From an uncultured virus (IMG/VR IMGVR_UViG_3300031951_000030) (Duplodnaviria > Heunggongvirae > Uroviricota > Caudoviricetes): a stretch of 64,000 nt of DNA. The DNA lies in the IMG/VR virus record IMGVR_UViG_3300031951_000030. One strand, 5' to 3'. How positions within the stretch are numbered: the first letter of the stretch is position 1; the number at the start of each line of letters is the position of its first letter. Shown in pieces: positions 1,156 through 35,246 of this stretch. The notes under the pieces are model-generated. The model was not told where the DNA came from. It did not search any database and was given only the letters and a program-made list of their open reading frames with translations. Both the position numbers and the translations under genes were made by a program.

Positions 1156-2385
1156 TTATGGTTTTTTCCATATCCATACTGGCTCACAAAATGTTTTGTT
1201 TTTTGCTTCTTCCGCTTTTAATAAAGCTTCTTCTGTATATCTTTCCTCATCCCCTTCTATAATTGCTCCTGCACCTGCTGAACCTGGTCTCTTTGCCATC
1301 TCCATCCCTAAACACCCTTCATAGATACCTCCCAATGATTTGATGTAATCGTTCATAGGGTTTGTTATTTCTTGGTATCCTTTACCATCCCCTTTGGAAG
1401 ATGCATATACATCTGCAATGTTAATTGCTAAATACCCACCCTTTCTAATAGTAGGCCAAACCTTTTCGATTGTTTTATGTAAGAATAATTTATTCCATGC
1501 ATCAATGTTGTTGTATCGAACCCAACTTTGGGTATCGTCATAAGAATATCGTTCAACATTGAAATATGGGGGTGAGCTGAAAACAATGTCAAAATAATCG
1601 GTGTACTCACTATAATCCATGTCTTCAGCTGGTGAGCAATGGAATGTGGCTTTTTTATCCGTTTCGAAGAATCCGTTATTCTTTCTATAAAATTCTGCCT
1701 GTTGTTCATAAATTGGGTGATTTTCTTTTCTCGGGTCAATACCCACATAATGTTCTCCTTTTTCAGATGCCATAAATCCACACAATCTATCTCCCCATCC
1801 CGCCGATATGTCTAACACATTTTTTGCACCTACCATATCGTAAAGTGCTTTGGCAACATTGGGTTTGAATTGTGAGCAAATGTACTTTCTTAAACTCAAA
1901 CAAACTCGCAGTTCGTTTCTTCCTACTTCATCAAATTTAAGAGTGTATAACCCACCCATTAAAGACGTCATAAAATCCTTACTTGCCCACGTTCTATGAG
2001 GACCTGGCGAAACGGTGCCGTCTACACTCCAACGATTTGCTTGTTGAAAGAAATTGGATGCAGAGTTACCAGTGTTTAACCTTTTTACAAATTGCTTCTT
2101 ACCTCTGAATGTTAAAGGATAATTACTTTCCGATGCTTTACGAGGAAACCACTCACCCTCTTTAAGTAGTTCGTTGTAACGAGTTCCTTTGAGAGCAAGG
2201 TATTCCTTTCTAGCTTCGGTTTCTGTGATTTCGGCATACGGTAATTCGTATTCCATACACAATTGCGCAAGAGAGTCTTTTACATCATCTCTGTCAAAAG
2301 TGCTTTTAATATAACTCCACTCTTCACTATTGATGTGAAGGTATGGAGCCATATTTTTGAACTTGTTAAAGTATTCTATATACAT
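1156..2385 (-). CDS. SAM-dependent DNA amino-methyltransferase-like protein (m4C/m6A type)
   Basis: SAM-binding motif VLDISAGWGDRL, YVGID, and catalytic SPPY motif. Confidence 0.8.
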   Translation of the reverse strand: MYIEYFNKFKNMAPYLHINSEEWSYIKSTFDRDDVKDSLAQLCMEYELPYAEITETEARKEYLALKGTRYNELLKEGEWFPRKASESNYPLTFRGKKQFVKRLNTGNSASNFFQQANRWSVDGTVSPGPHRTWASKDFMTSLMGGLYTLKFDEVGRNELRVCLSLRKYICSQFKPNVAKALYDMVGAKNVLDISAGWGDRLCGFMASEKGEHYVGIDPRKENHPIYEQQAEFYRKNNGFFETDKKATFHCSPAEDMDYSEYTDYFDIVFSSPPYFNVERYSYDDTQSWVRYNNIDAWNKLFLHKTIEKVWPTIRKGGYLAINIADVYASSKGDGKGYQEITNPMNDYIKSLGGIYEGCLGMEMAKRPGSAGAGAIIEGDEERYTEEALLKAEEAKNKTFCEPVWIWKKP

Positions 2386-2395
2386 AACTTAATAA

Positions 2396-4666
2396 TTAAT
2401 TATTCTGTAATTCCGTAACATAAGAATCTAAAACAACATTTCCACTTTTAAAAGAATAACTGCTATTATATTCAATTTCAAAATAAGAAAGTACAATTTT
2501 TAAATTTTCTCGTGCTTTCTTTGCGTTGTTGTAATCTTCTTCTTTTGCTTCATTATCGCTATCTTCAATGAATTCAATCTTTCTTTTATTTAGAGTATCA
2601 TTGCAATTTGCAATCATTTCTTTCCAAAATAAGTCAAATGATTTTTGATTTAGTTTAAATTTATGTCTATTATCTTTATTAAACTCAAATATCCACATTT
2701 TATCACGAAGAACTCCACCATCCGAATCAGCTTCTAAATGCCCAACATCAAATTCTTCAACTTTACGAAGTATTCCATCACGCGTATTAAAGATTTTAAA
2801 ATTTGATAAATCGTTATTTTTTATTTCTTTTTTAAGAAAATTTAAAAATTTCAATCTTTCTTTTGAAGTAGTTGATGCATCTATATATTCTAAATCTAAA
2901 ACTGGTTTTACAACATCAATGAAAAATGTATCTATAACTGCATATATTTTTTCGATATTACCACCTTTAAAATGATATAATGGACCAAATGTAGGCGTAT
3001 CATTTCTATCATCTAAATCCGATGCTCTACATACATCTTTCCAATCATCAATATTATACTCAAATTTAAAAAATGATTTAGGTCCTTCATATAAATCAAT
3101 TTCAAAATTCCAAACAAAATCTAACCACTTTTGAGTTGTAATTTCAATAACTCTATTAAGCACATCTGTAATATGTGTTTCGGATAGATTTTTGTTTTGT
3201 AATACAAAATCAATAGTATTTAATAATATTGGATAAAGTAATTCTTTTTGTTGTAATCTCAACTTATTAACAGTACCTAAATTACCAGGTTTATCTATAC
3301 CAATATTTTTAAGATATTCTCTAATTATTTCGGTTTCCTTTTGTAAATGAGTATTCCATAGTTGAATTATTTTCTCGTTATTTAACCCAACATTTTTTTG
3401 TGAATTTTGAATTCTATTATATCCTAATGTAGCTTCAACCATATTAAAAACTTTTAGAAATTCGGATTCTAATTGCTTTACATTTCGTTTGTTTCTTTCG
3501 GAATATTCAATATATTCGGCAACAGTCTCTTGAACTATTTTAGTTCCTTTATCAAACGGCCTAGCTAAACCATTATAAAACCAATTTTGATAACGCTTTA
3601 AACCATAATCACTTTTAATATCCGCACCATTAATTTGAATTAAACATGATGTAAGAAAATGATAAATGTATCTATCATATTCATTATATTCAGAACCATG
3701 AATATTATCATTAATTACTCTAAAAAATGGATTGTTTTTATCAGATTTTGCAAAACATGCGGATAAAATGGCTGGTTTATGTACATCTCTTGGATTTTTA
3801 CTATTATCATATACTACATTATCATGCCAAGCATCTTTTACCATAGTCATTGATAAATTCACATCCGATTGTCCGGCACCTCGTTTACCTTCTCTATGAT
3901 ACGATTCACTTTCACATCCATTACTTTTTCTTTCTAATATTACATTTGGTTTTAAATCAAGAATTGAATTAATTAATTTAAAATATCCATTCTCTTTTAA
4001 CCAACTAACAGTTAAAAATTGATTTTTTGTAATTACAAAATCATCTTTAAAAGCACCTAATGCTAATTTTAAAAGATTTAATAAATCTGAATTTTTACCG
4101 TTTTCCCATCTATTAGAATTTTTAATATATCTGTTTTCAACTTCATTAAATTCTCCTTTTTCATCAAGAACTTTCCATACTTTTGAATCGGTAAAATAAC
4201 TAAACCATCTCCATACTAATTGAAATTTACTTTCACCATCCCATATACCAACTAATTTAAATTCTCCATAAGTATCTGTATTTATTTTTAAAGTTGGAAT
4301 TGAACTGTGTGTAATCCAAGATATAAAACCATCACTAATACTATCGTAATCCCAAGTAGATGTTCCACAATCTTCGTTCTTATTAAGAGTTCTTATTACC
4401 GAAGATTTACCCCTTTGTCCTTTTGATGGTAAAAATATTGTTGTAGACATTACAGGTTTTACATTATACTGCACATCTCTAAAAGATATAGGTTCATAAT
4501 GAAACAGTAAATCTCGATAGGTTAGTTCTTTCAATGTTCCCCACGTACTTGATGAGTTATTGAAGTTTTCTATTACATTTCTGATTTGTTCTTCTTTGGT
4601 GAGAACGATACCTGATAGATTAGCTCTGTCTAACAAAGCCTTATCAATTTTTTTTGAGTATCTCAT
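2396..4666 (-). CDS. Large hypothetical protein, possibly a divergent GmrSD-like (DUF262 + HNH) protein
   Basis: 756 aa. IWDGESKF resembles the DUF262 DGQQR motif. C-terminal DVGHLEADSDGG...NKDNR resembles an HNH motif. Confidence 0.45.
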   Translation of the reverse strand: MRYSKKIDKALLDRANLSGIVLTKEEQIRNVIENFNNSSSTWGTLKELTYRDLLFHYEPISFRDVQYNVKPVMSTTIFLPSKGQRGKSSVIRTLNKNEDCGTSTWDYDSISDGFISWITHSSIPTLKINTDTYGEFKLVGIWDGESKFQLVWRWFSYFTDSKVWKVLDEKGEFNEVENRYIKNSNRWENGKNSDLLNLLKLALGAFKDDFVITKNQFLTVSWLKENGYFKLINSILDLKPNVILERKSNGCESESYHREGKRGAGQSDVNLSMTMVKDAWHDNVVYDNSKNPRDVHKPAILSACFAKSDKNNPFFRVINDNIHGSEYNEYDRYIYHFLTSCLIQINGADIKSDYGLKRYQNWFYNGLARPFDKGTKIVQETVAEYIEYSERNKRNVKQLESEFLKVFNMVEATLGYNRIQNSQKNVGLNNEKIIQLWNTHLQKETEIIREYLKNIGIDKPGNLGTVNKLRLQQKELLYPILLNTIDFVLQNKNLSETHITDVLNRVIEITTQKWLDFVWNFEIDLYEGPKSFFKFEYNIDDWKDVCRASDLDDRNDTPTFGPLYHFKGGNIEKIYAVIDTFFIDVVKPVLDLEYIDASTTSKERLKFLNFLKKEIKNNDLSNFKIFNTRDGILRKVEEFDVGHLEADSDGGVLRDKMWIFEFNKDNRHKFKLNQKSFDLFWKEMIANCNDTLNKRKIEFIEDSDNEAKEEDYNNAKKARENLKIVLSYFEIEYNSSYSFKSGNVVLDSYVTELQNN

Positions 4667-4708
4667 AATTCTATGAAGTTTAAAAGGTAATTCAACCCGT
4701 TATTAATA

Positions 4709-4739
4709 CAAATATAAGAAAAGTATTTCGAAATATCAA
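4709..4739 (-). promoter_or_regulatory. Bacteroidetes-type promoter
   Basis: Minus strand TTG (4739-4737), 20 nt, TATATTTG (4716-4709), an exact TAnnTTTG match. Confidence 0.7.
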
Positions 4740-4758
4740 GCACTTTCTCATTTACTTT

Positions 4759-5598
4759 TTAAGAAAAAATCCATCTTCCTCCAATGTTCCAAAATAGTAT
4801 ATCTCCATCTAATTTTTCAATGTTATCCGATAACCATTTCCACTGTTTAATATCCCAAAATTGATTGCAAGGAAATGGTGCTTCAAAATTATCTAACCTA
4901 TCGTTAAATCCATACTCTGATTTTTCAATATGAACATTGGTTGGGTCATATACATTGTGTTGTACATACGTTCCTTTGACCGTTCTGTAAGATGAAACAC
5001 AAGTACTCCAAGCGTGTCTATCTGGTTTTTCCCAAAAGTTATTCCTTTGCCCTACGAATTTTTTAATCAATCCAGATGATGTTACTCCCTCACCCGATGA
5101 AACTACTAAATGTTTAAAATCACCCTTTTCTTCCAAAACCCTTTCCATCTTTTTTTCCATGTAATCAACATAGAAACCATCGTTGAATGCATAAGGTAAT
5201 AACTGCCATTTTCCTACCGATGAATTTTTTAATTGAGCATACATTATATCCTGTATGTTGTTTTGAATAGGATTGAATATCGTTTTGGGGTGTAGTGTTT
5301 TAACCTTTTCTATTAGGGCCTGGCTGATTACTTTATTGTCAGGATACGAATATATGAAGTCTATCCCTAACTCCTCACATATCGCAGCTAATGCCCAACC
5401 AGACCAACTTCCGTTTACTACCAAGTGGGTTAAAGGTTTTGACCTATCAACATACTTATCTACTAAATTATAGATTGCTTCAATTTTTCCCCAAGGTGGT
5501 AGTGATTCACCATCACCCATCAAATCATCTCGCTTAACCCAAACCTTTCTACCTTTCAATTCATACACCTCTAATGGTGTATTTGTATTTAAAACCAT
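4759..5598 (-). CDS. PLP-dependent enzyme, fold type II (D-cysteine desulfhydrase / ACC deaminase-like)
   Basis: VWVKRDD...WGK (Schiff-base Lys), SSGEGVT phosphate loop, C-terminal ILFWNIGG. Confidence 0.75.
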   Translation of the reverse strand: MVLNTNTPLEVYELKGRKVWVKRDDLMGDGESLPPWGKIEAIYNLVDKYVDRSKPLTHLVVNGSWSGWALAAICEELGIDFIYSYPDNKVISQALIEKVKTLHPKTIFNPIQNNIQDIMYAQLKNSSVGKWQLLPYAFNDGFYVDYMEKKMERVLEEKGDFKHLVVSSGEGVTSSGLIKKFVGQRNNFWEKPDRHAWSTCVSSYRTVKGTYVQHNVYDPTNVHIEKSEYGFNDRLDNFEAPFPCNQFWDIKQWKWLSDNIEKLDGDILFWNIGGRWIFS

Positions 5599-6431
5599 AC
5601 TCTTTCGTGTCTTTTTAGATGGGCATCTTCTATAGTGTTTTCTTTACATTTATCAATTAGTTTTTTCAAATCATCTGCAAAGTTACTATTAACATACCCA
5701 CCAATCTTACCTTTAATAATTGGTTGATTGTAACTCCAAGATACGTGTTCATAATATCTGATGTTTGGAAATTCTGTTATTTGAGGTCTATGGTCGGATG
5801 TTAGCATATCAAAGTGTCCTTGCTTTAACTTACCACTTGCTATGAAATTAACTAACGCAGGATTACTGATTACTTCTCCTCTACTAATAGAAATTATATC
5901 AACTTCTTTTCGTATTTTTGAAAACAATACATCATCAAAATATCCCTTTGTACTATCATTTAAAGGTAGTGTAATTACAATAGTTTTAGCAAATGCTAAA
6001 TATCTATCCACTTCTTCTTGTGCAGTTTTGGTATTAACAACATTGAAATTTCCAATGTGTTTTTGTAACTCTTTACTGATACTACCGTTACCAAATATCA
6101 ATACCGCATCATCTTCTTTAATCTTATCTTTAATCCAATTTGCACAAGGTACTGCAGTTGGTGATAATGCAACAACTCCGATGTTCTTATCTTTACAATC
6201 TTTTAAGTTTACCATATCCACACCATGTGAACGACAAACTATCCATTCTAAATTTGGATACTTATTTAAAGTTTGTTTGCCAATCTTTGAAAACTTAACA
6301 GAAAGAACCTTAACTTCTGGATATGTATCTTTTGGTCTTTCGTATGCACCCAATACTTGTACATTCGGTAATCTTTCTAAAACGGATTCTACAATATCAG
6401 CTTTATCTTTTAATAATACATCGTTATACAT
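5589..6431 (-). CDS. D-isomer-specific 2-hydroxyacid dehydrogenase-like protein
   Basis: RSHGVDMVNL, FGNGSIS (Rossmann), LPLNDSTKG, ISRGEVI, EHVS. Start reassigned to the ATG at 6431, which overlaps the upstream stop by 8 nt. Confidence 0.75.
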   Translation of the reverse strand: MYNDVLLKDKADIVESVLERLPNVQVLGAYERPKDTYPEVKVLSVKFSKIGKQTLNKYPNLEWIVCRSHGVDMVNLKDCKDKNIGVVALSPTAVPCANWIKDKIKEDDAVLIFGNGSISKELQKHIGNFNVVNTKTAQEEVDRYLAFAKTIVITLPLNDSTKGYFDDVLFSKIRKEVDIISISRGEVISNPALVNFIASGKLKQGHFDMLTSDHRPQITEFPNIRYYEHVSWSYNQPIIKGKIGGYVNSNFADDLKKLIDKCKENTIEDAHLKRHERVWF

Positions 6432-7974
6432 TTGTAAACTTTTTAAGGGTTGATTTATTGTCATATTTTATAAATGATTCATCAAAGTATTCTTTGATTT
6501 TATCTTTTTCTTGCTTTAAAAAATCGGTATGACATCCAACTTGAAATGTTTTTTTAGGTCTCCATAGAATTTCATCCGATATTTCACCCTCAAATGATTT
6601 CCGTAAAAGATATTTCATAATTTTTCCCCTACCATTTGCTTCATCTCTATATCGTGTTGGTGTTTGTAATCCAAATTCAACTAAAGTTTTATCTAAAAAC
6701 GGTGTTCTTAATTCAACAGTACCACCATACATCATTGCTTTGTTTGTTCTAATCAAATTACTTCTATGTAACTCTCTTAACAATTGAACTCGTTTTGAAT
6801 GATACAATTTTGGGTCTTGCCAACTCCATCGAAATACATCTCCGTAACTTGCAAATATCTCATCACTACCTTCACCACCAAACACAACTTTAAAACCACG
6901 ATTGTCAATTTCTTTTGCCAAAAACAATTGTGCTACTGCTGGAGATATTTGAGTCCACTTCCAATCTTCGGATGCGTAAATTGATTCTTTTAATTTATCA
7001 ACTATTTCTTCTTTGGTAACATTTACTTCTATTAACTCAATACCAATTTCTTTACTGAATTCTCTTGCGTAATACAAGTCATCTTTTAAGTTTGCTTTTC
7101 TTGTGCCAGATGTTACATTTACAACAAATGCTTTTAGATTTTTAACACGCTTACTCAACAGATATGTAATAATTACTGAATCTATTCCACCACTTAAAAT
7201 TGTACAAATAGGAACATCTGCTATTAACTCATTATCAACTGCTTTGTTTAATAACAAATTCAATTTAGATGTATAGTGTTCTAATCCTAAATCATTTGAA
7301 TCAGTATCTTTTTTTAAGAAGTCATTGAAATTAAAATAAGTGTGGGTATGTGTATCACCTGTTTCCAAATAGTAAATCATACAAGTACCAGGTGTTACCG
7401 TTCGTATAATTTCTTCTTTTCTATCCTTTGAATTTTTATTTGCGTGATGATAATTTACTTTAAACGAATCCGTTAATGCTTTTATCTCACTAGCAAATGC
7501 TATTTTTCTATCAGCATCTTCCAAATAATAAAAAGGAAGTCTACCAATAAAATCTCTTCCTAAAAATAAAAAATTAGATTTTCTATCGTATATACAAAAA
7601 CTGAACATACCATCCAATCGTTTCATAAAATCAATTGGTTCATGTCCAAATTTTTTGTACATCAATGCCAACAATTCGGTATCTGAACTTTCTGTTTTTG
7701 TTTTGTATTCATTTCTTAAATACGAATACTCATCTATTGTATTTTTCCAAAGTTCTCCATTGAATACAACAACAACCTCCCCATCCACATCTTCAAATGG
7801 TTGGTTTGCTATTTCAGAAAGGTCTTGGATTGACAAACGATTATGAGCCATAAACAATCCGTTTAATGGTTCAATGACGGTAGAGTTATCCCGTCCTCTA
7901 TGTATTATTTTTTTAAGAGATAACTCTACCTGTTCTTTACTATTAAATGCGTTTCCGCCGATTATTCCACACAT
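6424..7974 (-). CDS. asnB: Asparagine synthetase B-like glutamine amidotransferase
   Basis: N-terminal MCGI, HRG, HNRLSIQD, FNGE, LSGGIDS (PP-loop), GEGSDE, ELRTPFLD. Confidence 0.9.
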   Translation of the reverse strand: MCGIIGGNAFNSKEQVELSLKKIIHRGRDNSTVIEPLNGLFMAHNRLSIQDLSEIANQPFEDVDGEVVVVFNGELWKNTIDEYSYLRNEYKTKTESSDTELLALMYKKFGHEPIDFMKRLDGMFSFCIYDRKSNFLFLGRDFIGRLPFYYLEDADRKIAFASEIKALTDSFKVNYHHANKNSKDRKEEIIRTVTPGTCMIYYLETGDTHTHTYFNFNDFLKKDTDSNDLGLEHYTSKLNLLLNKAVDNELIADVPICTILSGGIDSVIITYLLSKRVKNLKAFVVNVTSGTRKANLKDDLYYAREFSKEIGIELIEVNVTKEEIVDKLKESIYASEDWKWTQISPAVAQLFLAKEIDNRGFKVVFGGEGSDEIFASYGDVFRWSWQDPKLYHSKRVQLLRELHRSNLIRTNKAMMYGGTVELRTPFLDKTLVEFGLQTPTRYRDEANGRGKIMKYLLRKSFEGEISDEILWRPKKTFQVGCHTDFLKQEKDKIKEYFDESFIKYDNKSTLKKFTNV

Positions 7975-7992: not shown

Positions 7993-8256
7993 TTACTTTA
8001 AGTGCTCATTTAACGCATTCATATATGTTAATTTAGAAGATACACCAGTAAATCTTTCAACCTCTACACCGTTCTTTTCTATCACAATTGTTGGTACTGA
8101 ACGAATTGAGTATTTAGTTGCTTCATTATATGCCTCATCCACATCATAATCTTCAAATTTTACATTTGAAAATTGAGTTTTAACTTCGTTAATTACTGGT
8201 GCCAATGCTCTACATGGACCACACCAAGATGCACTAAATTTCTTTACTGTTAACAT
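7993..8256 (-). CDS. trxA: Thioredoxin
   Basis: WCGPC active site, IRSVPT. Confidence 0.92.
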   Translation of the reverse strand: MLTVKKFSASWCGPCRALAPVINEVKTQFSNVKFEDYDVDEAYNEATKYSIRSVPTIVIEKNGVEVERFTGVSSKLTYMNALNEHLK

Positions 8257-8425
8257 ATTTTTTATTTTTTGGTTTTCCTTTTAATTTTTCAATTAACTTA
8301 AATTTTCTAACTTGCTTTAATTTTCTGTCTAACGGATTTTCGTTTTCTTCAACTCTATTTAGCTTTTTTTCTAATTGAAGTAGTTTTTTAGCTACCTTTC
8401 CTTTGTCAATTTTGTTTTCACTCAT
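8234..8425 (-). CDS. Small basic hypothetical protein
   Basis: Lys-rich ORF filling the gap between nrdA and thioredoxin; likely start MSENK at 8425. Confidence 0.5.
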   Translation of the reverse strand: MSENKIDKGKVAKKLLQLEKKLNRVEENENPLDRKLKQVRKFKLIEKLKGKPKNKKYVNSKEI

Positions 8426-8444
8426 AGTATTGTTTTTTAATTGT

Positions 8445-10226
8445 TTATCCTTCACAACTTACACATTCTGGGTCCATTGCCTTTGCTGCAATATCACCTC
8501 TTAAAACTGATTCGGTTCTCATATAATATAATGTTTTTACTCCTTGTTTCCAAGCTTCCATATGAATTTGATTAATCCACTTTGGTTCTGCGGTTGCAGG
8601 GAATGCCAAATTTAGGGAAACTGCTTGGTCGATATATTGTTGTCTAACACCTGCTTGTCTTACTAAATCTAATTGGTTGATTTCTTTAAATGTTTTGAAT
8701 ACATCTTTAACTGAATTACATCTGTGTGCTCTTTCATCTATAGATACTTCTTTACATTCAAGTAACTTACCATCTGAAAAACAGTAATCATCTAAAAAGT
8801 CCAAATCTTGTACTGAACCACCATCTGCTAAAATCTTATCCCATACCTCTTTGGTATTTTTTCCAATCTTACGAAGTACTCTTTCCAATTCAGGATTCTT
8901 TCTAATGAATGTACCCTTTGCAGTTTGTTCTGTAAACACATTTGCTGCCCAAGGTTCAATACCACTACTAACATTACCACTCAATTTAGAGTTTGATACC
9001 GTAGGTGCTACTGCTCTCAAATGTGTATTTCTCATACCACTCTCTTTACACCATAGTGGTTCACCATATTCACTAGCTAACCATCTACTTGCTCTTTCAG
9101 ATTCAATCTTTAATTGAGAGAAAATCTTACGAGTTTCAAATTGAGCTTGTAAACCTTCAAATGGTAATCCTTTTTGTTGTAAGTAAGTGTGCCATCCCAA
9201 TACACCTAATCCTAATGCTCTACCTCTTTCTGCTGAACGAACTGAATTCTCAAATCCTTTCATATTTTTAGCTCTTTGGATAAATTCTTCCAACACACCA
9301 TCTAAAAATATAGTAGAAGTATATATCAAATCGGTATCTTTCCACTCATCGTATTTAGCTAAATTCAGTGATGATAAACAGCAAACAAATGAATGTTGTT
9401 CATCGGTGTGTAGAACGATTTCAGAACAAATGTTGGTCATATGAACTTTCAATCCATTCTTTTTATACATTTCAGGATTTGCTTTGTTTACATTTCCCTT
9501 GTACATAATGTACGGTTCACCAGTTGCTTTTCTTTTCTGAAGTATCTTACCCCATTTTCTACGAGCTTCCGAATCACCTTCTTCTACCTTTCTCATAAAC
9601 CTATCACTAACCACAACACATTGATGTAAGTTAAGTGATTGACGATTCACATCTCCCTTTGGTTCTCTGATTTCTAAAAAATCTTCAAAATCCTTATGTT
9701 CTACTTTAATGTTTACCGATGCTGCTCCTCTACGAACTGAACCTTGATTTGTAGCAAGAATAGTTGAATCATAGATTTTAGCAAATGGTACAATACCATC
9801 GGATGTTCCGTTACCAGTAATTTTACTACCTGCTGGTCTAATCATATTGATACCAATACCAACACCACCACCATGCTTTGCCAACAACATCAATTCTAAA
9901 TTTTTAGAACCAATTTCATAGATACTATCACCTACATCAATACCGAAACATGAGATTGGTAAACCTCTATCAGTACCAGTATTTGATAATACAGGCGTTG
10001 CTAAACACAACCATCCTTTCCAAATGTAATCAAAGAACTTTGTTGCCAATTGTGGTTTCTCCAATCTTTTAGCAACTGCCGTAGCAACTCTCCAATATGC
10101 ATCCTTTGGTTTTTCACCAGCTTGTAGGTAAGTTTTAGATATAGTTTTTACATATATCTCATTATTTCCCCAAGATGGGAAATCAACATCTACTTCCCAT
10201 CCGTATTCTTCTCCGTAATTTCTCAT
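8445..10226 (-). CDS. nrdA: Class I ribonucleotide reductase alpha subunit (no ATP cone)
   Basis: ATPVLSN, PISCF, GGGVG, TNICSEI, APTVSNS, KTLYY, C-terminal CVSCEG. Confidence 0.95.
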   Translation of the reverse strand: MRNYGEEYGWEVDVDFPSWGNNEIYVKTISKTYLQAGEKPKDAYWRVATAVAKRLEKPQLATKFFDYIWKGWLCLATPVLSNTGTDRGLPISCFGIDVGDSIYEIGSKNLELMLLAKHGGGVGIGINMIRPAGSKITGNGTSDGIVPFAKIYDSTILATNQGSVRRGAASVNIKVEHKDFEDFLEIREPKGDVNRQSLNLHQCVVVSDRFMRKVEEGDSEARRKWGKILQKRKATGEPYIMYKGNVNKANPEMYKKNGLKVHMTNICSEIVLHTDEQHSFVCCLSSLNLAKYDEWKDTDLIYTSTIFLDGVLEEFIQRAKNMKGFENSVRSAERGRALGLGVLGWHTYLQQKGLPFEGLQAQFETRKIFSQLKIESERASRWLASEYGEPLWCKESGMRNTHLRAVAPTVSNSKLSGNVSSGIEPWAANVFTEQTAKGTFIRKNPELERVLRKIGKNTKEVWDKILADGGSVQDLDFLDDYCFSDGKLLECKEVSIDERAHRCNSVKDVFKTFKEINQLDLVRQAGVRQQYIDQAVSLNLAFPATAEPKWINQIHMEAWKQGVKTLYYMRTESVLRGDIAAKAMDPECVSCEG

Positions 10227-10234
10227 AATCTTTT

Positions 10235-11248
10235 TTAAAATATATCATCCCAATTTTCACCTTCTCCTGCCTTTGAATAATCAGTTGGTCTGATTGCAAA
10301 GAAGTCGGTATGTGTAACACCTCCCGTAAGATGATAAAACCAATCCAATTCAGATGCTTTCTTCTCATCAAACTCAAAGTAGTCATCTCCACCTTTGATG
10401 GGGGTGTATCCCAATTCTGCTAACTTCTCATTAACTCTTTTTGTAATGAATTCCTTTAGGTCATCTTTTTTAAGATTCTCCAAATCACCCATTTCAAAAA
10501 TTTTATCAATGAATTTATGTTCCAAATCTCTAATAATTTCAGCTGCTTTGTAGATATCAGCTTTTGCTTCTTCTAACAATTCAGGATACTCTTCACACAT
10601 ATGCCTGAATAACTGGCAACCCATCTTTGAATGTAGTGATTCATCTCTAACACTCCACTTCATTTGTTGTCCAATTCCTTTTAATAAGTTTCGCATTTGA
10701 AAACTATAAAGAACTGCAAATGATGAATAAAGTGCTACACCCTCTGTGAATGCTGAAAATATAGCAAGTGAACGTGCTACCTCAACTCTAGCCTGATGAT
10801 TTGTTTTTAAATCTTCAGGTGTCCATTCGGCAGTTACATTGGTTAGTAATTCAAATCTTTCTTTCATAACTTCATCATGCATAAAACCTGCGAAGTCATC
10901 TAATCCCAATGTTTCATTTAGATAAGAATATGCAACTGAATGTATTGTTTCTTGAGAACCAAATGCCATTGCCATCTGACGGATTTCATGCTTTGGAAAC
11001 CATTTAGTAACCATACCAGTCCAATAATCAGAAACGGCACATTCGGTTTGAGCAAATCCTAAAAGTATATTACCTACTAAATGCTTTTCTTCTTTTGTTA
11101 AATTCTCATTCCAATCTTTCACATCCATCTGCATTGGTATTTCAGTATGCAACCAAAATGCCTGCATTTGTTTCAACCAACCCTCATTGTAATAATCTGG
11201 ATATTCGAATGGTTTATATGGGATTCTTTCTGTAAATAATTTACTCAT
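10235..11248 (-). CDS. nrdB: Class I ribonucleotide reductase beta subunit
   Basis: ETIHSVAY, EGVALYSSF, RDESLH, TDFFAIRPTDY. Confidence 0.95.
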   Translation of the reverse strand: MSKLFTERIPYKPFEYPDYYNEGWLKQMQAFWLHTEIPMQMDVKDWNENLTKEEKHLVGNILLGFAQTECAVSDYWTGMVTKWFPKHEIRQMAMAFGSQETIHSVAYSYLNETLGLDDFAGFMHDEVMKERFELLTNVTAEWTPEDLKTNHQARVEVARSLAIFSAFTEGVALYSSFAVLYSFQMRNLLKGIGQQMKWSVRDESLHSKMGCQLFRHMCEEYPELLEEAKADIYKAAEIIRDLEHKFIDKIFEMGDLENLKKDDLKEFITKRVNEKLAELGYTPIKGGDDYFEFDEKKASELDWFYHLTGGVTHTDFFAIRPTDYSKAGEGENWDDIF

Positions 11249-16386: not shown

Positions 16387-16743
16387 TTATTTTGCCCACT
16401 TTCCTCTACTCACTAATTGAGAAATTACGGAGTAAACTGCTAGGTCTTGATAGGTATCTTCGATGGTTTCACCCACTTCATCAGGGTGTCCTAATACTAC
16501 CAATTGTTTTAATCTGTTGATTTTATCATTCTTTCTGAACCATAGACCACTCAATGATAATTTAATATCTTCTTTAGTTTTAAGTTGTGTACCTACTGAA
16601 ATATTTCCAGGTCCATAGTTTCTTTGCTTTTTACAAAAAGTAGCATACATTTCATCCAAAATGTTTTTGAATTCAAAAGTCATTTCTGGATAATTTTCTT
16701 CACAATACTCAATTGCGGATTGTTCTTTTTTGGTGTTTAACAT
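16387..16743 (-). CDS. Nucleotide modification associated domain 1 (Nmad1 / DUF1599-like) protein
   Basis: KKQRNYG, RKNDKINRL, ETIEDTYQDLAVY pattern. Confidence 0.75.
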   Translation of the reverse strand: MLNTKKEQSAIEYCEENYPEMTFEFKNILDEMYATFCKKQRNYGPGNISVGTQLKTKEDIKLSLSGLWFRKNDKINRLKQLVVLGHPDEVGETIEDTYQDLAVYSVISQLVSRGKWAK

Positions 16744-19464: not shown

Positions 19465-20730
19465 TTATCCTAAATGAACCAAATTATTGTAACTGGTTCC
19501 TTCATCAATTCGAACGGGAAACCCACCCTTTTCCATAATGGTCGGTAAAAGTTTTAAAATCCCCTCCCTCTCCATCGGATGTGTATCTATGAGAAACGCA
19601 TCATAGGTGTATAGAATCAATTTCGATTTCATCTCACTCATTTGGTTTAGGATATCACTCATCTTTTTATAATTCACTTCCGTTTCTAGAGCTTGTAAGA
19701 GATAATTAAATACCTTTTGTTCAGTCCCTCCTTCTATTTTAGTGAAATGAATTTCCCTTCCGTATAGGGGTGTTTTCAGAACTCCGGAGATTACGAACTT
19801 TTGGTAAACCTCTTTGATGTATTTATCAACGGTTTGAAAAAACGGTATCTCCCTTGCGAACGAATCCAACCCCCCATAGAGATACTTAAAGGTTAGAGCT
19901 TTGGCCGTTTCGTAATCCGTTCCATAAAGATTGGCAAGGTGTTGGTGAGCAGTTTCTCCTTTTGGAAATTCATACCCTACGATTTTCGCAATCAAACGGA
20001 TGTGGTAAGACTCGTAATCGAATTGTAAGAGAGTACCCCCATCAAAACGGCTAACAAAACAATCTCTACTACCATCGGATTTGTTAAGAGCGGAGTAATT
20101 TACATTAAGGTGTCTATTGGATGGTCTACCTGTAGTTGTGTATGGATTGTATTTCGTATACACTTTACCATTATGTATGTGCTTGGGAGAGAAACTAAAT
20201 CTATCAATAAATTTTTCCTCTTCGACTTGTACCCCAGCCCCCTCCAGCCTCCCTAACTCTTTTATGGAATCTGAATAAATACGATACCAACTCTTTCTGT
20301 TTTTTATATCAGGGATTGATTTTAAGAGTTCGTACCACTTCATTAGCGGGATACAATCATTCAACTCATTATAATCGGACCTATACCCCTTAAAAAGAGT
20401 TTCTACCCATTCAGAGAAATTAAATGGTTTACCATATTCTTCGAAGTAGACCCATTCATAATCTAACCCTTCTGATTGAATGTATCGGTTTCCCAAAACC
20501 AATGTATTTTCATTACAAAGTTTATGTATTGGAAAATTTGGTAAGGTTGAAGCATCAACATGATTGAAATTTATTATACCATCATCGGTTTCAGTTCTGT
20601 AATACAGAAACGATAGATGCGTACCAAATTCATGTGCTTTGGGTGAACTCCACACTGGTATCAATAATCTAATGTTTGGATTAGATTGGACAAAAAAATG
20701 TAGGGTATCCCTATTTTCTATTAAGTTCAT
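19465..20730 (-). CDS. Divergent family A DNA polymerase-like protein
   Basis: TTTGRPS, motif A DYESYHIR, motif B AKALTFKYLYG, NYLLQ, motif C YDAF; only 421 aa. Confidence 0.8.
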   Translation of the reverse strand: MNLIENRDTLHFFVQSNPNIRLLIPVWSSPKAHEFGTHLSFLYYRTETDDGIINFNHVDASTLPNFPIHKLCNENTLVLGNRYIQSEGLDYEWVYFEEYGKPFNFSEWVETLFKGYRSDYNELNDCIPLMKWYELLKSIPDIKNRKSWYRIYSDSIKELGRLEGAGVQVEEEKFIDRFSFSPKHIHNGKVYTKYNPYTTTGRPSNRHLNVNYSALNKSDGSRDCFVSRFDGGTLLQFDYESYHIRLIAKIVGYEFPKGETAHQHLANLYGTDYETAKALTFKYLYGGLDSFAREIPFFQTVDKYIKEVYQKFVISGVLKTPLYGREIHFTKIEGGTEQKVFNYLLQALETEVNYKKMSDILNQMSEMKSKLILYTYDAFLIDTHPMEREGILKLLPTIMEKGGFPVRIDEGTSYNNLVHLG

Positions 20731-33518: not shown

Positions 33519-35246
33519 TTACTTTAATGTTGTTGAGAAATGATTATATACCTGCGCTACTGATGTAGAATTCTGTAATACATTGTAGAATAATACGGCT
33601 TGGATACCTCCATTCCAAAATGTTGTTCTTGCACTATTACATCCAATTGTTACAAAGTTAGTAGAAGATGGAGCAGTAAATGCTGATGAAGTGAATGTTC
33701 CTACTGAACTACCATCAACGTATACGGTACAAGTTCCAGATGGTTGGAATGCTGCTGAAATTAAATAGTTTACCCCACTCGTTAATGATGTGGTTAATTG
33801 TGCACTATTTCCTAATGAACTACCATAAAACTTAACTCTATTTAATGTAGAATTATCAGTAGATTCGATTGCTAACCCATAAAATCCAGCATAATCAAAA
33901 ATATGTCGCGATGCTACACCCAATGTTGTAGTTGGTCTAATCCAAACGTGGATTGTACCAGTATTTGTATTAAATTGTGAATATCCACCATTAATGTTAG
34001 TTGTCGTATCTTTGTAGAAGAATTGGTTAGTTCCGTTAAATGTTACAAATGATGCTTTCTTATTTGCACCATTTGTAGATGTTGGATTACCACCCGTAAT
34101 TCCCGCATCGTTTATAACACCTGCAGGTCTAACACCTGTATTATATCCACTCAAATCTAACCAGTCTGCTGCTGCAGAACCTGAATTATAAGATGCCGTT
34201 TTATATTGGTCAACATATAATCTTAATCCTGAAGATGGAATATATGGTTGTGTAGTTGTTCCTTTGTTATGAGATATGATACCGTTTGCCAAATAAACGT
34301 CAGCATTTTCCACATTAAGTGTTACGATTTCAACATCTTCAATTATTACTTCAATATCAGTAATTTCTACCTCATTTAAACCAGTTACCGAATCGTATGT
34401 TACTACTAAATCACCAATTAATACATCTTCGATATTCTTAAAACGATATTTTTCGATTTCAGAATCCCAAACCCAAAGAGGGTGAGTTCCAGTTGCTTTT
34501 ATCAATCCACCATTTAAATCGTAATATCCACTTGCAAAGTTAAATACAATATCTGCTACATTTACTTCTTGATATGAACCAGATTGATTTTCTAACATAT
34601 AGAATCTCCAATCAACTTGGTCTGATTCTGGATCCTGGTCTTCATCAGGTAAACCATCAGGTACCCATGCTTTAATAGTATCACCTACTGAAAGGTCTTC
34701 TACATTTACAAGAGTTCCATCTGCTTTAGTTATTTTTGTTCCAAATAGTAAACAGAAATCTGGTTGGTTAATTGTATTATAAACATCTACTGCAAATAGG
34801 GTTTTGGTAGATGGTGTGTTATATCCAGTTGCTGCCAAATTATAACCATCGGCATAATTTAAAGTCAATACTGAAGATGCTTCCGAATATGTTGATTGTG
34901 CAATAGATGCAGGTGTAATTGGAAATGACGGAGATGCACCTAATGTTGGAGAACCTACTGAAAAGTTTGCGTTATTAAAAGATGCAGTATAATTTGCAGC
35001 TACACTACCTACTTTCGAACCATGTAATGAACCCGCTGTCCCAAATGAGAATGTTGCGGTTTCTGTTGTAGATTCTACTATATAAGTAAAAGTTGGCAAA
35101 TTTGGCGTTACGGAGTCTATTGCGAATGAAGTTAGTGAACTATTCGAAGCTCCACCTGATAACCCTCCCAATGAAACTGCTCCGGCTCTGTTTGAACCAC
35201 TAACCGCTCTAAATAAATTTCCTAATGATAAATTAGTTCTTGGCAT
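33519..35246 (-). CDS. Virion protein with a central Hint domain and a C-terminal LamG/ConA-like domain
   Basis: CLLFGTKI...LSVGD...TGTHPLW...YLANGIISHN, followed by a LamG-like region (WIRP, VYVDG, IG, FYN). Confidence 0.8.
   Translation of the reverse strand: MPRTNLSLGNLFRAVSGSNRAGAVSLGGLSGGASNSSLTSFAIDSVTPNLPTFTYIVESTTETATFSFGTAGSLHGSKVGSVAANYTASFNNANFSVGSPTLGASPSFPITPASIAQSTYSEASSVLTLNYADGYNLAATGYNTPSTKTLFAVDVYNTINQPDFCLLFGTKITKADGTLVNVEDLSVGDTIKAWVPDGLPDEDQDPESDQVDWRFYMLENQSGSYQEVNVADIVFNFASGYYDLNGGLIKATGTHPLWVWDSEIEKYRFKNIEDVLIGDLVVTYDSVTGLNEVEITDIEVIIEDVEIVTLNVENADVYLANGIISHNKGTTTQPYIPSSGLRLYVDQYKTASYNSGSAAADWLDLSGYNTGVRPAGVINDAGITGGNPTSTNGANKKASFVTFNGTNQFFYKDTTTNINGGYSQFNTNTGTIHVWIRPTTTLGVASRHIFDYAGFYGLAIESTDNSTLNRVKFYGSSLGNSAQLTTSLTSGVNYLISAAFQPSGTCTVYVDGSSVGTFTSSAFTAPSSTNFVTIGCNSARTTFWNGGIQAVLFYNVLQNSTSVAQVYNHFSTTLK
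34266..34754 (-). other. Hint (intein-like, BIL-type) domain
   Basis: Cys165 to His-Asn327; the +1 residue is Lys; no endonuclease insert. Confidence 0.75.

Follow-up and report, generated by a model that had tools for sequence, protein, structure and literature searches.

The subject of this study is a gene cassette and its surroundings in a 64,000-nucleotide stretch of DNA (hereafter the window) from the uncultured virus IMGVR_UViG_3300031951_000030 of IMG/VR. The full record, which comes from fresh water (a lake), is a single contig of 201,940 bp, rated 100% complete and without end repeats, and its gene content (gp23, portal, sheath, gp32, RecA, family B DNA polymerase PolB and clamp loader) assigns the phage to the T4-like myoviruses. 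The cassette consists of three genes, encoding: (i) an AsnB-like amidotransferase of 516 aa (6424-7974; Asn_synthase, E 1e-50; GATase_7, E 3e-28), (ii) a D-2-hydroxyacid-dehydrogenase-fold protein of 280 aa (5589-6431) and (iii) a fold-type-II pyridoxal phosphate (PLP) enzyme of 279 aa belonging to the family of phage M6 gp52 (4759-5598). It is followed by an open reading frame (ORF) of 756 aa in a variable slot (2396-4666), an SPPY class-I S-adenosylmethionine (SAM)-dependent transferase of 409 aa (1156-2385), a PCNA-like sliding clamp of 239 aa (378-1097; PCNA_C, E 2e-4) and, directly after the clamp, a second SPPY transferase paralog of 523 aa, the 5' part of which occupies positions 1-376 before the gene runs off the window start (genome 52862-51291), with PolB next. 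The genes nrdB, nrdA, a 73-aa ORF and thioredoxin (7993-11248) form the fixed upstream flank of the cassette, and all ORFs of the locus lie on the minus strand. A preceding sequence-only reading had given the gene order, the coordinates and both stop-to-start overlaps (8 nt between AsnB and dehydrogenase at 6424-6431, 10 nt between dehydrogenase and PLP genes at 5589-5598) correctly, and had placed the cassette close behind nrdB-nrdA-thioredoxin, which is confirmed by the 18 nt between the thioredoxin end and AsnB, with the 73-aa ORF located between nrdA and thioredoxin; the second SPPY paralog had been overlooked.

The locus is not an assembly artefact, since three IMG/VR contigs match it at 100% and a 3,764-bp contig (2122-5885) with zero differences was found in two freshwater runs (possibly the source of the window). 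The window and the genome record differ in single bases at 33725, 33735 and 33738. An alternative ATG of the dehydrogenase gene at 6464 would give a protein of 291 aa; the 280-aa form is preferred because the relatives start at the 6431 position. In the RNA run X17 only scattered pieces were found.

Related loci were fetched from IMG/VR with the PLP enzyme, AsnB and both transferases as queries, and the locus counts below take in re-fetched contigs and close kin. In this comparison the cassettes next to SPPY family genes fell into four types: AsnB with GNAT; PLP alone (a 255-aa PLP subfamily); AsnB with PLP and a thymidylate synthase (TS)-like protein; and AsnB with PLP and dehydrogenase. Among 71 distinct AsnB anchors, the 35 with 6 kb on both sides carried either GNAT (13) or PLP (22), with no case of both or neither, and PLP was present in 0/45 GNAT loci. 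AsnB and PLP adjoin the dehydrogenase in 22/22 anchors with full flanks, and the TS-like (CMP-hydroxymethylase-like) protein was found only together with AsnB and PLP (AsnB in 25/25 of its loci, dehydrogenase in 0/25). When only the loci obtained with the AsnB or PLP queries and having 6-kb flanks are counted, 20/21 AsnB and 33/35 PLP genes have an SPPY transferase at a distance of at most 6 kb, and 10/21 and 22/35, respectively, have PolB at this distance. The transferase accompanies the set into other settings and gene orders (L044-L051, L052/L057, L061-L083 and L223-L243), and no other gene family common to the cassette loci across lineages was found. For six records anchored on the 523-aa transferase and lacking a visible cassette, AsnB or PLP was located elsewhere, and the remaining ones were at most 36% complete. 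The neighbourhood is thus conserved, as AsnB, PLP and SPPY genes co-occur in several phage lineages in shuffled order. The idea of the three cassette genes as a unit held only in part: their co-occurrence is conserved, but the dehydrogenase is optional, AsnB is combined with GNAT or PLP, and PLP also stands alone. The constant cassette partner is the SPPY transferase family and not the trio.

Two close relatives carry a different cassette in the same slot: L090 (PolB 99%, NrdA 99% and 409-aa transferase 92% identical to those of this phage) has AsnB with GNAT, and L091 (core proteins 94-98%) has PLP alone. In both comparisons the DNA similarity is lost at window position 7895 or 8050 and returns at 2385-2386, which is the transferase start. 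Because these relatives are 94-99% identical in core proteins and yet carry other cassettes, the swap is, judged by sequence, recent. Transferases that are 92-95% identical to each other occur with three different cassettes. Two further proteins of the relatives' loci may bear on the chemistry. The TS-like protein (232 aa; L133:11245-11943 and 24 other loci) is closest in the PDB to CMP 5-hydroxymethylase; it retains the cytosine-type Asp, and an adjacent Asp is replaced by Arg (RAND to RSNR). This resemblance, together with the SPPY motif, would point to cytosine as the target base. A 390-aa protein (L052:14356-15534 and relatives), frequent beside AsnB, PLP and dehydrogenase, has a C-terminal Asp/Arg beta-hydroxylase domain behind an unassigned N-terminal one. 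As a separate observation, marine relatives encode a TET-associated glycosyltransferase (PF20691; L290:1271-2161 and the L223-L243 group) two genes behind their PLP-only cassette.

The PLP protein matches phrog_7093 over its whole length, and its best tblastn match among annotated phage records is M6 gp52 (28% identity, 98% coverage), all 63 matches in these records being to M6/YuA-type phages; the profile match to M6 gp52 has an E value of 7e-38. The Schiff-base Lys38 is retained and aligns with K36 of M6. According to the available sections of PMC8989533, M6 gp52 is a decarboxylase of C-alpha-glycyl-thymine in DNA, for which a free alpha-amine is required and K36 was proposed as the lysine. 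AsnB begins with MCG, as in Ntn (N-terminal nucleophile) glutaminases in which Cys1 is exposed after Met removal, and has a PP-loop adenylating domain (SGGIDS). Residues C2, R26, N72, G73, D98 and S261-S266 are invariant in 23 aligned rows, and both the glutaminase and the adenylation sites are kept. The possibility that AsnB joins a small acid to an aminopropyl group was discarded, since no cassette type shows any change in the glutaminase residues. The dehydrogenase-fold protein keeps R67, GxGxxS, R184, D208 and H229, of which the active-site residues R184 and H229 are invariant in 22 rows; it has a short inter-domain link and an invariant SxKFSKxG loop. In canonical D-2-hydroxyacid dehydrogenases the motif DVFxxEP bears the Glu of the His-Glu pair. 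As had been noticed from the sequence, this Glu is missing here while D208 is present, and D-M/T/I-L-x-x-x-x-R was found in 22/22 rows.

These data allow two functional settings to be weighed. The set may belong to auxiliary metabolism or to the tailoring of virion or surface glycans, supplying asparagine, serine/lactate or sugar amidation for the phage's glycosyltransferases. Sugar-nucleotide, glycosyltransferase, radical-SAM and 2-oxoglutarate-oxygenase genes do form two large clusters in the genome (L004-L006, genome ~129,000-156,000; L002-L003), and in L044-L051 the set follows sugar genes. This explanation is nevertheless improbable, given that the PLP matches in named phages are M6/YuA modification genes, that AsnB proteins of relatives end in clamp-type tails and that the dehydrogenase is devoid of the canonical Glu; moreover, none of 26 pattern matches to the PLP enzyme in genome contigs was confirmed as a cellular relative, this short-pattern scan being weak proof of absence. 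The earlier preference for DNA-adduct chemistry over amino-acid supply is strengthened by the orthology with M6 gp52, the precedent of CmoY (PMC12783734, available sections), the co-occurrence across lineages and the tails of relatives' AsnB. The cassette very probably serves the modification of the phage's own DNA.

The 409-aa transferase carries motif I DxSxGWGxR (DISAGWGDR) ahead of motif IV SPPY (FSSPPYF), an invariant Arg200 beside motif I and a 170-residue N-terminal domain without a match. The PF01555 matches of SPPY proteins are weak, that of the 409-aa protein being below the Pfam cut-off, and phmmer/hmmsearch of the transferase against PDB returned nothing useful. The structure model (apo; pLDDT (predicted local distance difference test) 90) shows a generic class-I Rossmann fold, with Z of ~15 to TrmN, Trm11 and METTL5, and of 13.4 to TYW2 (root-mean-square deviation 4.1, 190 aligned). 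No sequence link or specific structural link between the SPPY family and known transferases of the 3-amino-3-carboxypropyl (acp) group was found in these comparisons. A PNP_UDP_1 nucleosidase is encoded near the transferases in some relatives.

The common substrate of the exchangeable cassettes is proposed to be an alpha-amino acid, because PLP decarboxylation, GNAT acetylation and AsnB amidation all need to fit it. As the sole shared group-transfer enzyme is SAM-dependent and has the amine-activating SPPY motif, and as SAM has an alpha-amino-acid arm, an N-acp-base is suggested; microcin C offers an established case in which a PLP enzyme decarboxylates after acp transfer (PMC10491745, available sections). 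An acp group on the base as the handle is a serious candidate, held with slightly less than even confidence. The setting would be post-replicative hypermodification of phage DNA at specific sites. In a first step, the SPPY enzyme (the 409-aa protein and/or its 523-aa paralog) would flip the base and transfer the acp of SAM, not the methyl, to the exocyclic amine (N4 of cytosine being favoured, N6 of adenine possible), with the release of methylthioadenosine (MTA). In a second step, suggested by the swapped cassettes, the alpha-amino-acid handle would be tailored: PLP alone would decarboxylate acp to aminopropyl, and AsnB with GNAT would yield an N-acetyl amide. The PLP subfamily that accompanies AsnB must catalyse a different reaction, because plain decarboxylation would destroy the carboxylate needed by AsnB. 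In this phage the PLP enzyme could take off the amine, yielding a 2-oxo acid or, if CO2 is lost as well, an aldehyde; the NAD enzyme could adjust the oxidation state, giving a 2-hydroxy acid or else a shortened acid; and AsnB, using ammonia from glutamine, could turn the carboxylate into a carboxamide, so that the side chain becomes neutral. The most likely end product is thus a neutral amide with the amine removed, either a 2-hydroxy-amide or a chain-shortened amide, and the exact product proposed is unlikely to be right in every detail.

Enzymes of the known hypermodification routes were searched for in 19 records, 9 of which are at least 90% complete. PF00303 (TS fold, dUMP hydroxymethylase) gave 0 matches in this 100%-complete record with positive controls, and tblastn of M6 gp58, gp51, gp54 and gp55 against this genome was negative. 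The models ADDT (amino acid:DNA transferase), HMUDK_hel, PF00145 (C5 methyltransferase) and TIGR00740 (taken here to be the CmoA model) matched 0/19 records each; among the positive controls, the ADDT and 5-hydroxymethyldeoxyuridine (5-hmdU) kinase models match M6, and TIGR00740 matches Streptomyces phage TurkishDelight. An ordinary TS occurs in 5/19 records. A nucleotide-level route as in M6, for which the sequence-only reading had suggested a search, is consequently not supported here: no TS-type, aGPT/ADDT or 5-HMUDK (the 5-hmdU kinase) gene was found in this genome. A separate observation is that neither a dUTPase nor a TS match was obtained in this genome, with dUTPase present in many relatives.

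The closest AsnB in a named phage is TurkishDelight gp124 (30%), whose gene has an SPPC C5-methylase gene on one side and a CmoA-like gene on the other, the layout of a carboxymethylcytosine pathway; the accession A0A7T0Q3R0 (a ligase) was considered for this protein and could not be tied to gp124. On this model, the SPPY enzyme might use carboxy-SAM to form N-carboxymethyl-adenine or -cytosine, which AsnB would amidate to a Mom-like product, with other roles for the PLP enzyme and the dehydrogenase, and the invariant Arg200 could bind the carboxylate. Such a route is very improbable, considering the result for TIGR00740, the negative tblastn of the TurkishDelight CmoA-like protein against this genome (which concerns phage genes, a host CmoA being possible) and the fact that each AsnB is accompanied by GNAT or PLP, neither of which would find an amine on a carboxymethyl group.

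The acp proposal, with tailoring on DNA, also gains from the C-termini of relatives' proteins. In gp45-clamp loci, LxxF[FML] C-termini were found on 13/14 AsnB, 8/11 transferases and 4/4 PolB, compared with 1/96 other proteins, and in PCNA-like-clamp loci [KRE]F[FW] C-termini were found on 46/54 PolB and 15/29 AsnB (those of the GNAT type), compared with 6/527 others. A clamp-binding tail motif is described for T4 in PMC6212786, and T4 alpha-glucosyltransferase binds gp45 (PMC13216743), in the available sections of both. The tail of the AsnB studied here (STLKKFTNV) is a degenerate look-alike of that of its own PolB (QTAKKFFTF). A predicted complex of the clamp with AsnB residues 477-516 had a score of 0.07 (mark 0.32) and was weighed neither way. 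In an alternative order of events, tailoring would take place first on SAM or a free metabolite, with PLP decarboxylating or deaminating SAM and AsnB amidating it, and the SPPY enzyme would then transfer the altered side chain to DNA. An order of MccE before MccD is left possible for microcin C (PMC10491745), and in the Cmo system a modified SAM is the first product (PMC12783734), according to their available sections. Against this stand the clamp tails of relatives' AsnB, the action of M6 gp52 and CmoY at the DNA level (PMC8989533 and PMC12783734, same sections) and the 92-95% identical transferases that serve three different cassettes, which leave this order a rather small chance of being right. 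A GT4 glycosyltransferase of the replication block (L003:4824-6206, genome 42824-44206) ends in KKFKLIEL and is one of three KKF-tailed ORFs.

Several observations speak against acp transfer or its tailoring as proposed. Acp and methyl transfer are inseparable by sequence or model. The motifs are also present in lone SPPY homologs of two phages that have no PLP gene (Bacteroides phage SJC03 and Vibrio phage 2.058.O), and no residue sets the transferases of the cassette loci apart from lone ones. Genomes carry 2-6 SPPY paralogs, as in ordinary orphan methylase arrays, and the cassette-adjacent transferases do not form one clade (a quick tree of 52 transferases gave several clades, with long-branch warnings). 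The loci are related, so the counts represent non-independent events. The AsnB of this phage fits neither strict tail pattern (the looser one that fits it, chosen post hoc, occurs in 3/196 ORFs), 14/29 AsnBs of the PCNA lineage have no tail, and the dehydrogenase-type AsnBs of other relatives lack a clamp-type tail. The PLP copy, like P0001 and P0002, deviates in 41/160 conserved columns (median of 2 among 120 homologs), including Ser170Glu in the glycine (phosphate) loop, and may be altered or crippled; moreover, acp has no beta-leaving group, and the beta-hydroxylase of 11/21 AsnB loci is absent here. Finally, GATC has 5 sites in the genome (observed/expected ratio (O/E) 0.01) and CTNAG none, and because of this almost total avoidance any modification-based protection is not global and is site-limited at most. 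The trinucleotide GAC/GTC is underrepresented in each of the three frames (O/E 0.45); this bias was tried and rejected as a pointer to the target site, since it also occurs in cassette-free relatives and in SJC03. Some of these points would suit another explanation, in which the DNA is hypermodified but the handle comes from an unrecognised phage or host enzyme, the SPPY proteins being ordinary N4-cytosine or N6-adenine methylases of the same replication island. The generic fold, the intact SPPY motif, the paralogs and the lone homologs in cultured phages agree with this, as does the fact that about half of the ORFs of the genome have no Pfam match (the scans covered 193 proteins, with one 1,658-aa ORF and four plus-strand ORFs outside them). 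It is considered unlikely, as no other family is common to the cassette loci and the transferase follows the cassette out of the replication block.

The 756-aa ORF, termed GmrSD-like in the sequence-only reading, begins 92 nt after the PLP gene. A representative library contains 20 relatives of this protein at E<=0.001, and it is absent from other cassette loci and therefore not a conserved member of the set. No Pfam match was found in 19 members of its family, it did not match the profile of its slot-mates, and an ESM Atlas search gave no usable match. Its motifs are a degenerate QR..W / DGESK (vs DGQQR) and a C-terminal H..GG..N, in which H643 is invariant and the GG and N are kept; an hhalign comparison for this C-terminal motif covers 44 columns (probability 2%, E 0.023). 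In the fold model (pLDDT 87), the weak first-ranking Foldseek match is DndI (E 0.18), and residues 37-263 weakly match the N-terminal parts of SspE and BrxU (Z 5.0 and 4.4). DndI and SspE carry DUF262. In relatives, eleven proteins encoded at this slot group together as GmrSD_N+HNH (PF03235+PF01844). The designation is thus plausible in view of the slot-mates and the fold matches, but it is statistically weak. The protein is probably, on the basis of these models, a divergent GmrSD-like (DUF262 and HNH-like) nuclease and a passenger of the cassette. Upstream of this ORF lies a TTG-N-TATATTTG site (4708-4739, minus strand) that resembles the Bacteroidetes promoter consensus. Three intergenic TATATTTG sites, including this one, occur in the genome, intergenic enrichment of TAnnTTTG is slight (1.42 vs 0.93 per kb) and a sigma-70 promoter scan stayed at chance level; the promoter reading is weak.

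Other features of the genome include a gene for DUF1599 ("nucleotide modification associated domain 1"; window 16387-16743, minus strand) just upstream of gp32, which is also present in several relatives, and a 421-aa protein with a family-A polymerase fragment (19465-20730, minus strand), the phage replicase being of family B. Outside the locus there are also a TonB-dependent-receptor-like outer-membrane barrel gene amid predicted lipoprotein genes (L001:8904-11381, genome 8904-11381), a carbamoyltransferase gene (L007:13443-15140), GroEL and GroES genes, and a gene for a 765-aa protein with two Hint/intein-like domains (L008:13144-15441).

On a wider scale, a large viral family annotated as N4/N6 DNA methylases could consist of DNA aminocarboxypropyl transferases with clamp-riding, exchangeable cassettes in aquatic jumbo phages, their products being aminopropyl, N-acetyl-amide, hydroxy-amide and possibly a ring closed onto C5 by the CMP-hydroxymethylase-like enzyme; this joint proposal is possible and somewhat doubtful. 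If true, phage DNA hypermodification would have a third way in, besides the hydroxymethyl and the carboxymethyl handle, and acp transfer, which is known to act on RNA, peptides and small molecules, would extend to DNA. For aquatic phages, many "methylase" annotations would be wrong, and AsnB and dehydrogenase genes otherwise counted as auxiliary metabolic genes would be explained. It would also provide sequence-specific enzymes placing a free amine or carboxylate on DNA from plain SAM. The swapped cassettes constitute a ready comparative test. No report of acp transfer to DNA or of this gene set was found in the literature searched, subscription papers and bioRxiv supplements being outside its scope.

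Among known systems, the thymidine hypermodification of Pseudomonas phage M6 and Salmonella phage ViI (PMC8989533, available sections) shares with the cassette the gp52-family PLP enzyme, which in M6 acts on a DNA-bound alpha-amino acid, and the combinatorial tailoring genes beside ribonucleotide reductase. Unlike in M6/ViI, searches for a dUMP hydroxymethylase, a 5-HMUDK, an amino acid:DNA transferase and a radical-SAM isomerase gave no match here, and AsnB, dehydrogenase and SPPY transferases are present instead. In the CmoA-CmoX-CmoY system of Synechococcus phage S-B43, CmoY, an asparagine-synthetase homolog, amidates a DNA carboxylate (PMC12783734, available sections, in which a cluster of uncharacterised ligases that, like this AsnB, have a glutaminase domain is mentioned and SPPY amino-type transferases with CmoA were not found). 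Common to both systems would be a methyltransferase-fold enzyme that adds a non-methyl carboxylate handle and an AsnB homolog that forms an amide, whereas the SPPC C5 enzyme and CmoA are missing here and PLP, dehydrogenase and GNAT are foreign to the Cmo pathway. The GmrSD family (BrxU, SspE, DndI) is approached by the 756-aa protein in its weak fold matches and in the true PF03235+HNH genes of the relatives' slot; the protein differs in being phage-borne, in its degenerate DGQQR and in lacking any match that is significant by sequence or profile. N4-cytosine/N6-adenine DNA methyltransferases (PF01555) and amino methyltransferases of the Trm11/TrmN type have the class-I fold and SPPY motif IV in common with the SPPY protein, which is distinguished by its DxSxGWGxR motif I, its unmatched N-terminal domain and its tie to tailoring enzymes. 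The acp transferases MccD, Tyw2, CntL and NAS (PMC10491745, available sections) likewise use a methyltransferase fold, for acp transfer to peptides, tRNA and small molecules, and in microcin C the Rossmann-fold transfer by MccD, followed by PLP decarboxylation by MccE and assisted by an MTA nucleosidase, parallels the order of steps proposed here for DNA.

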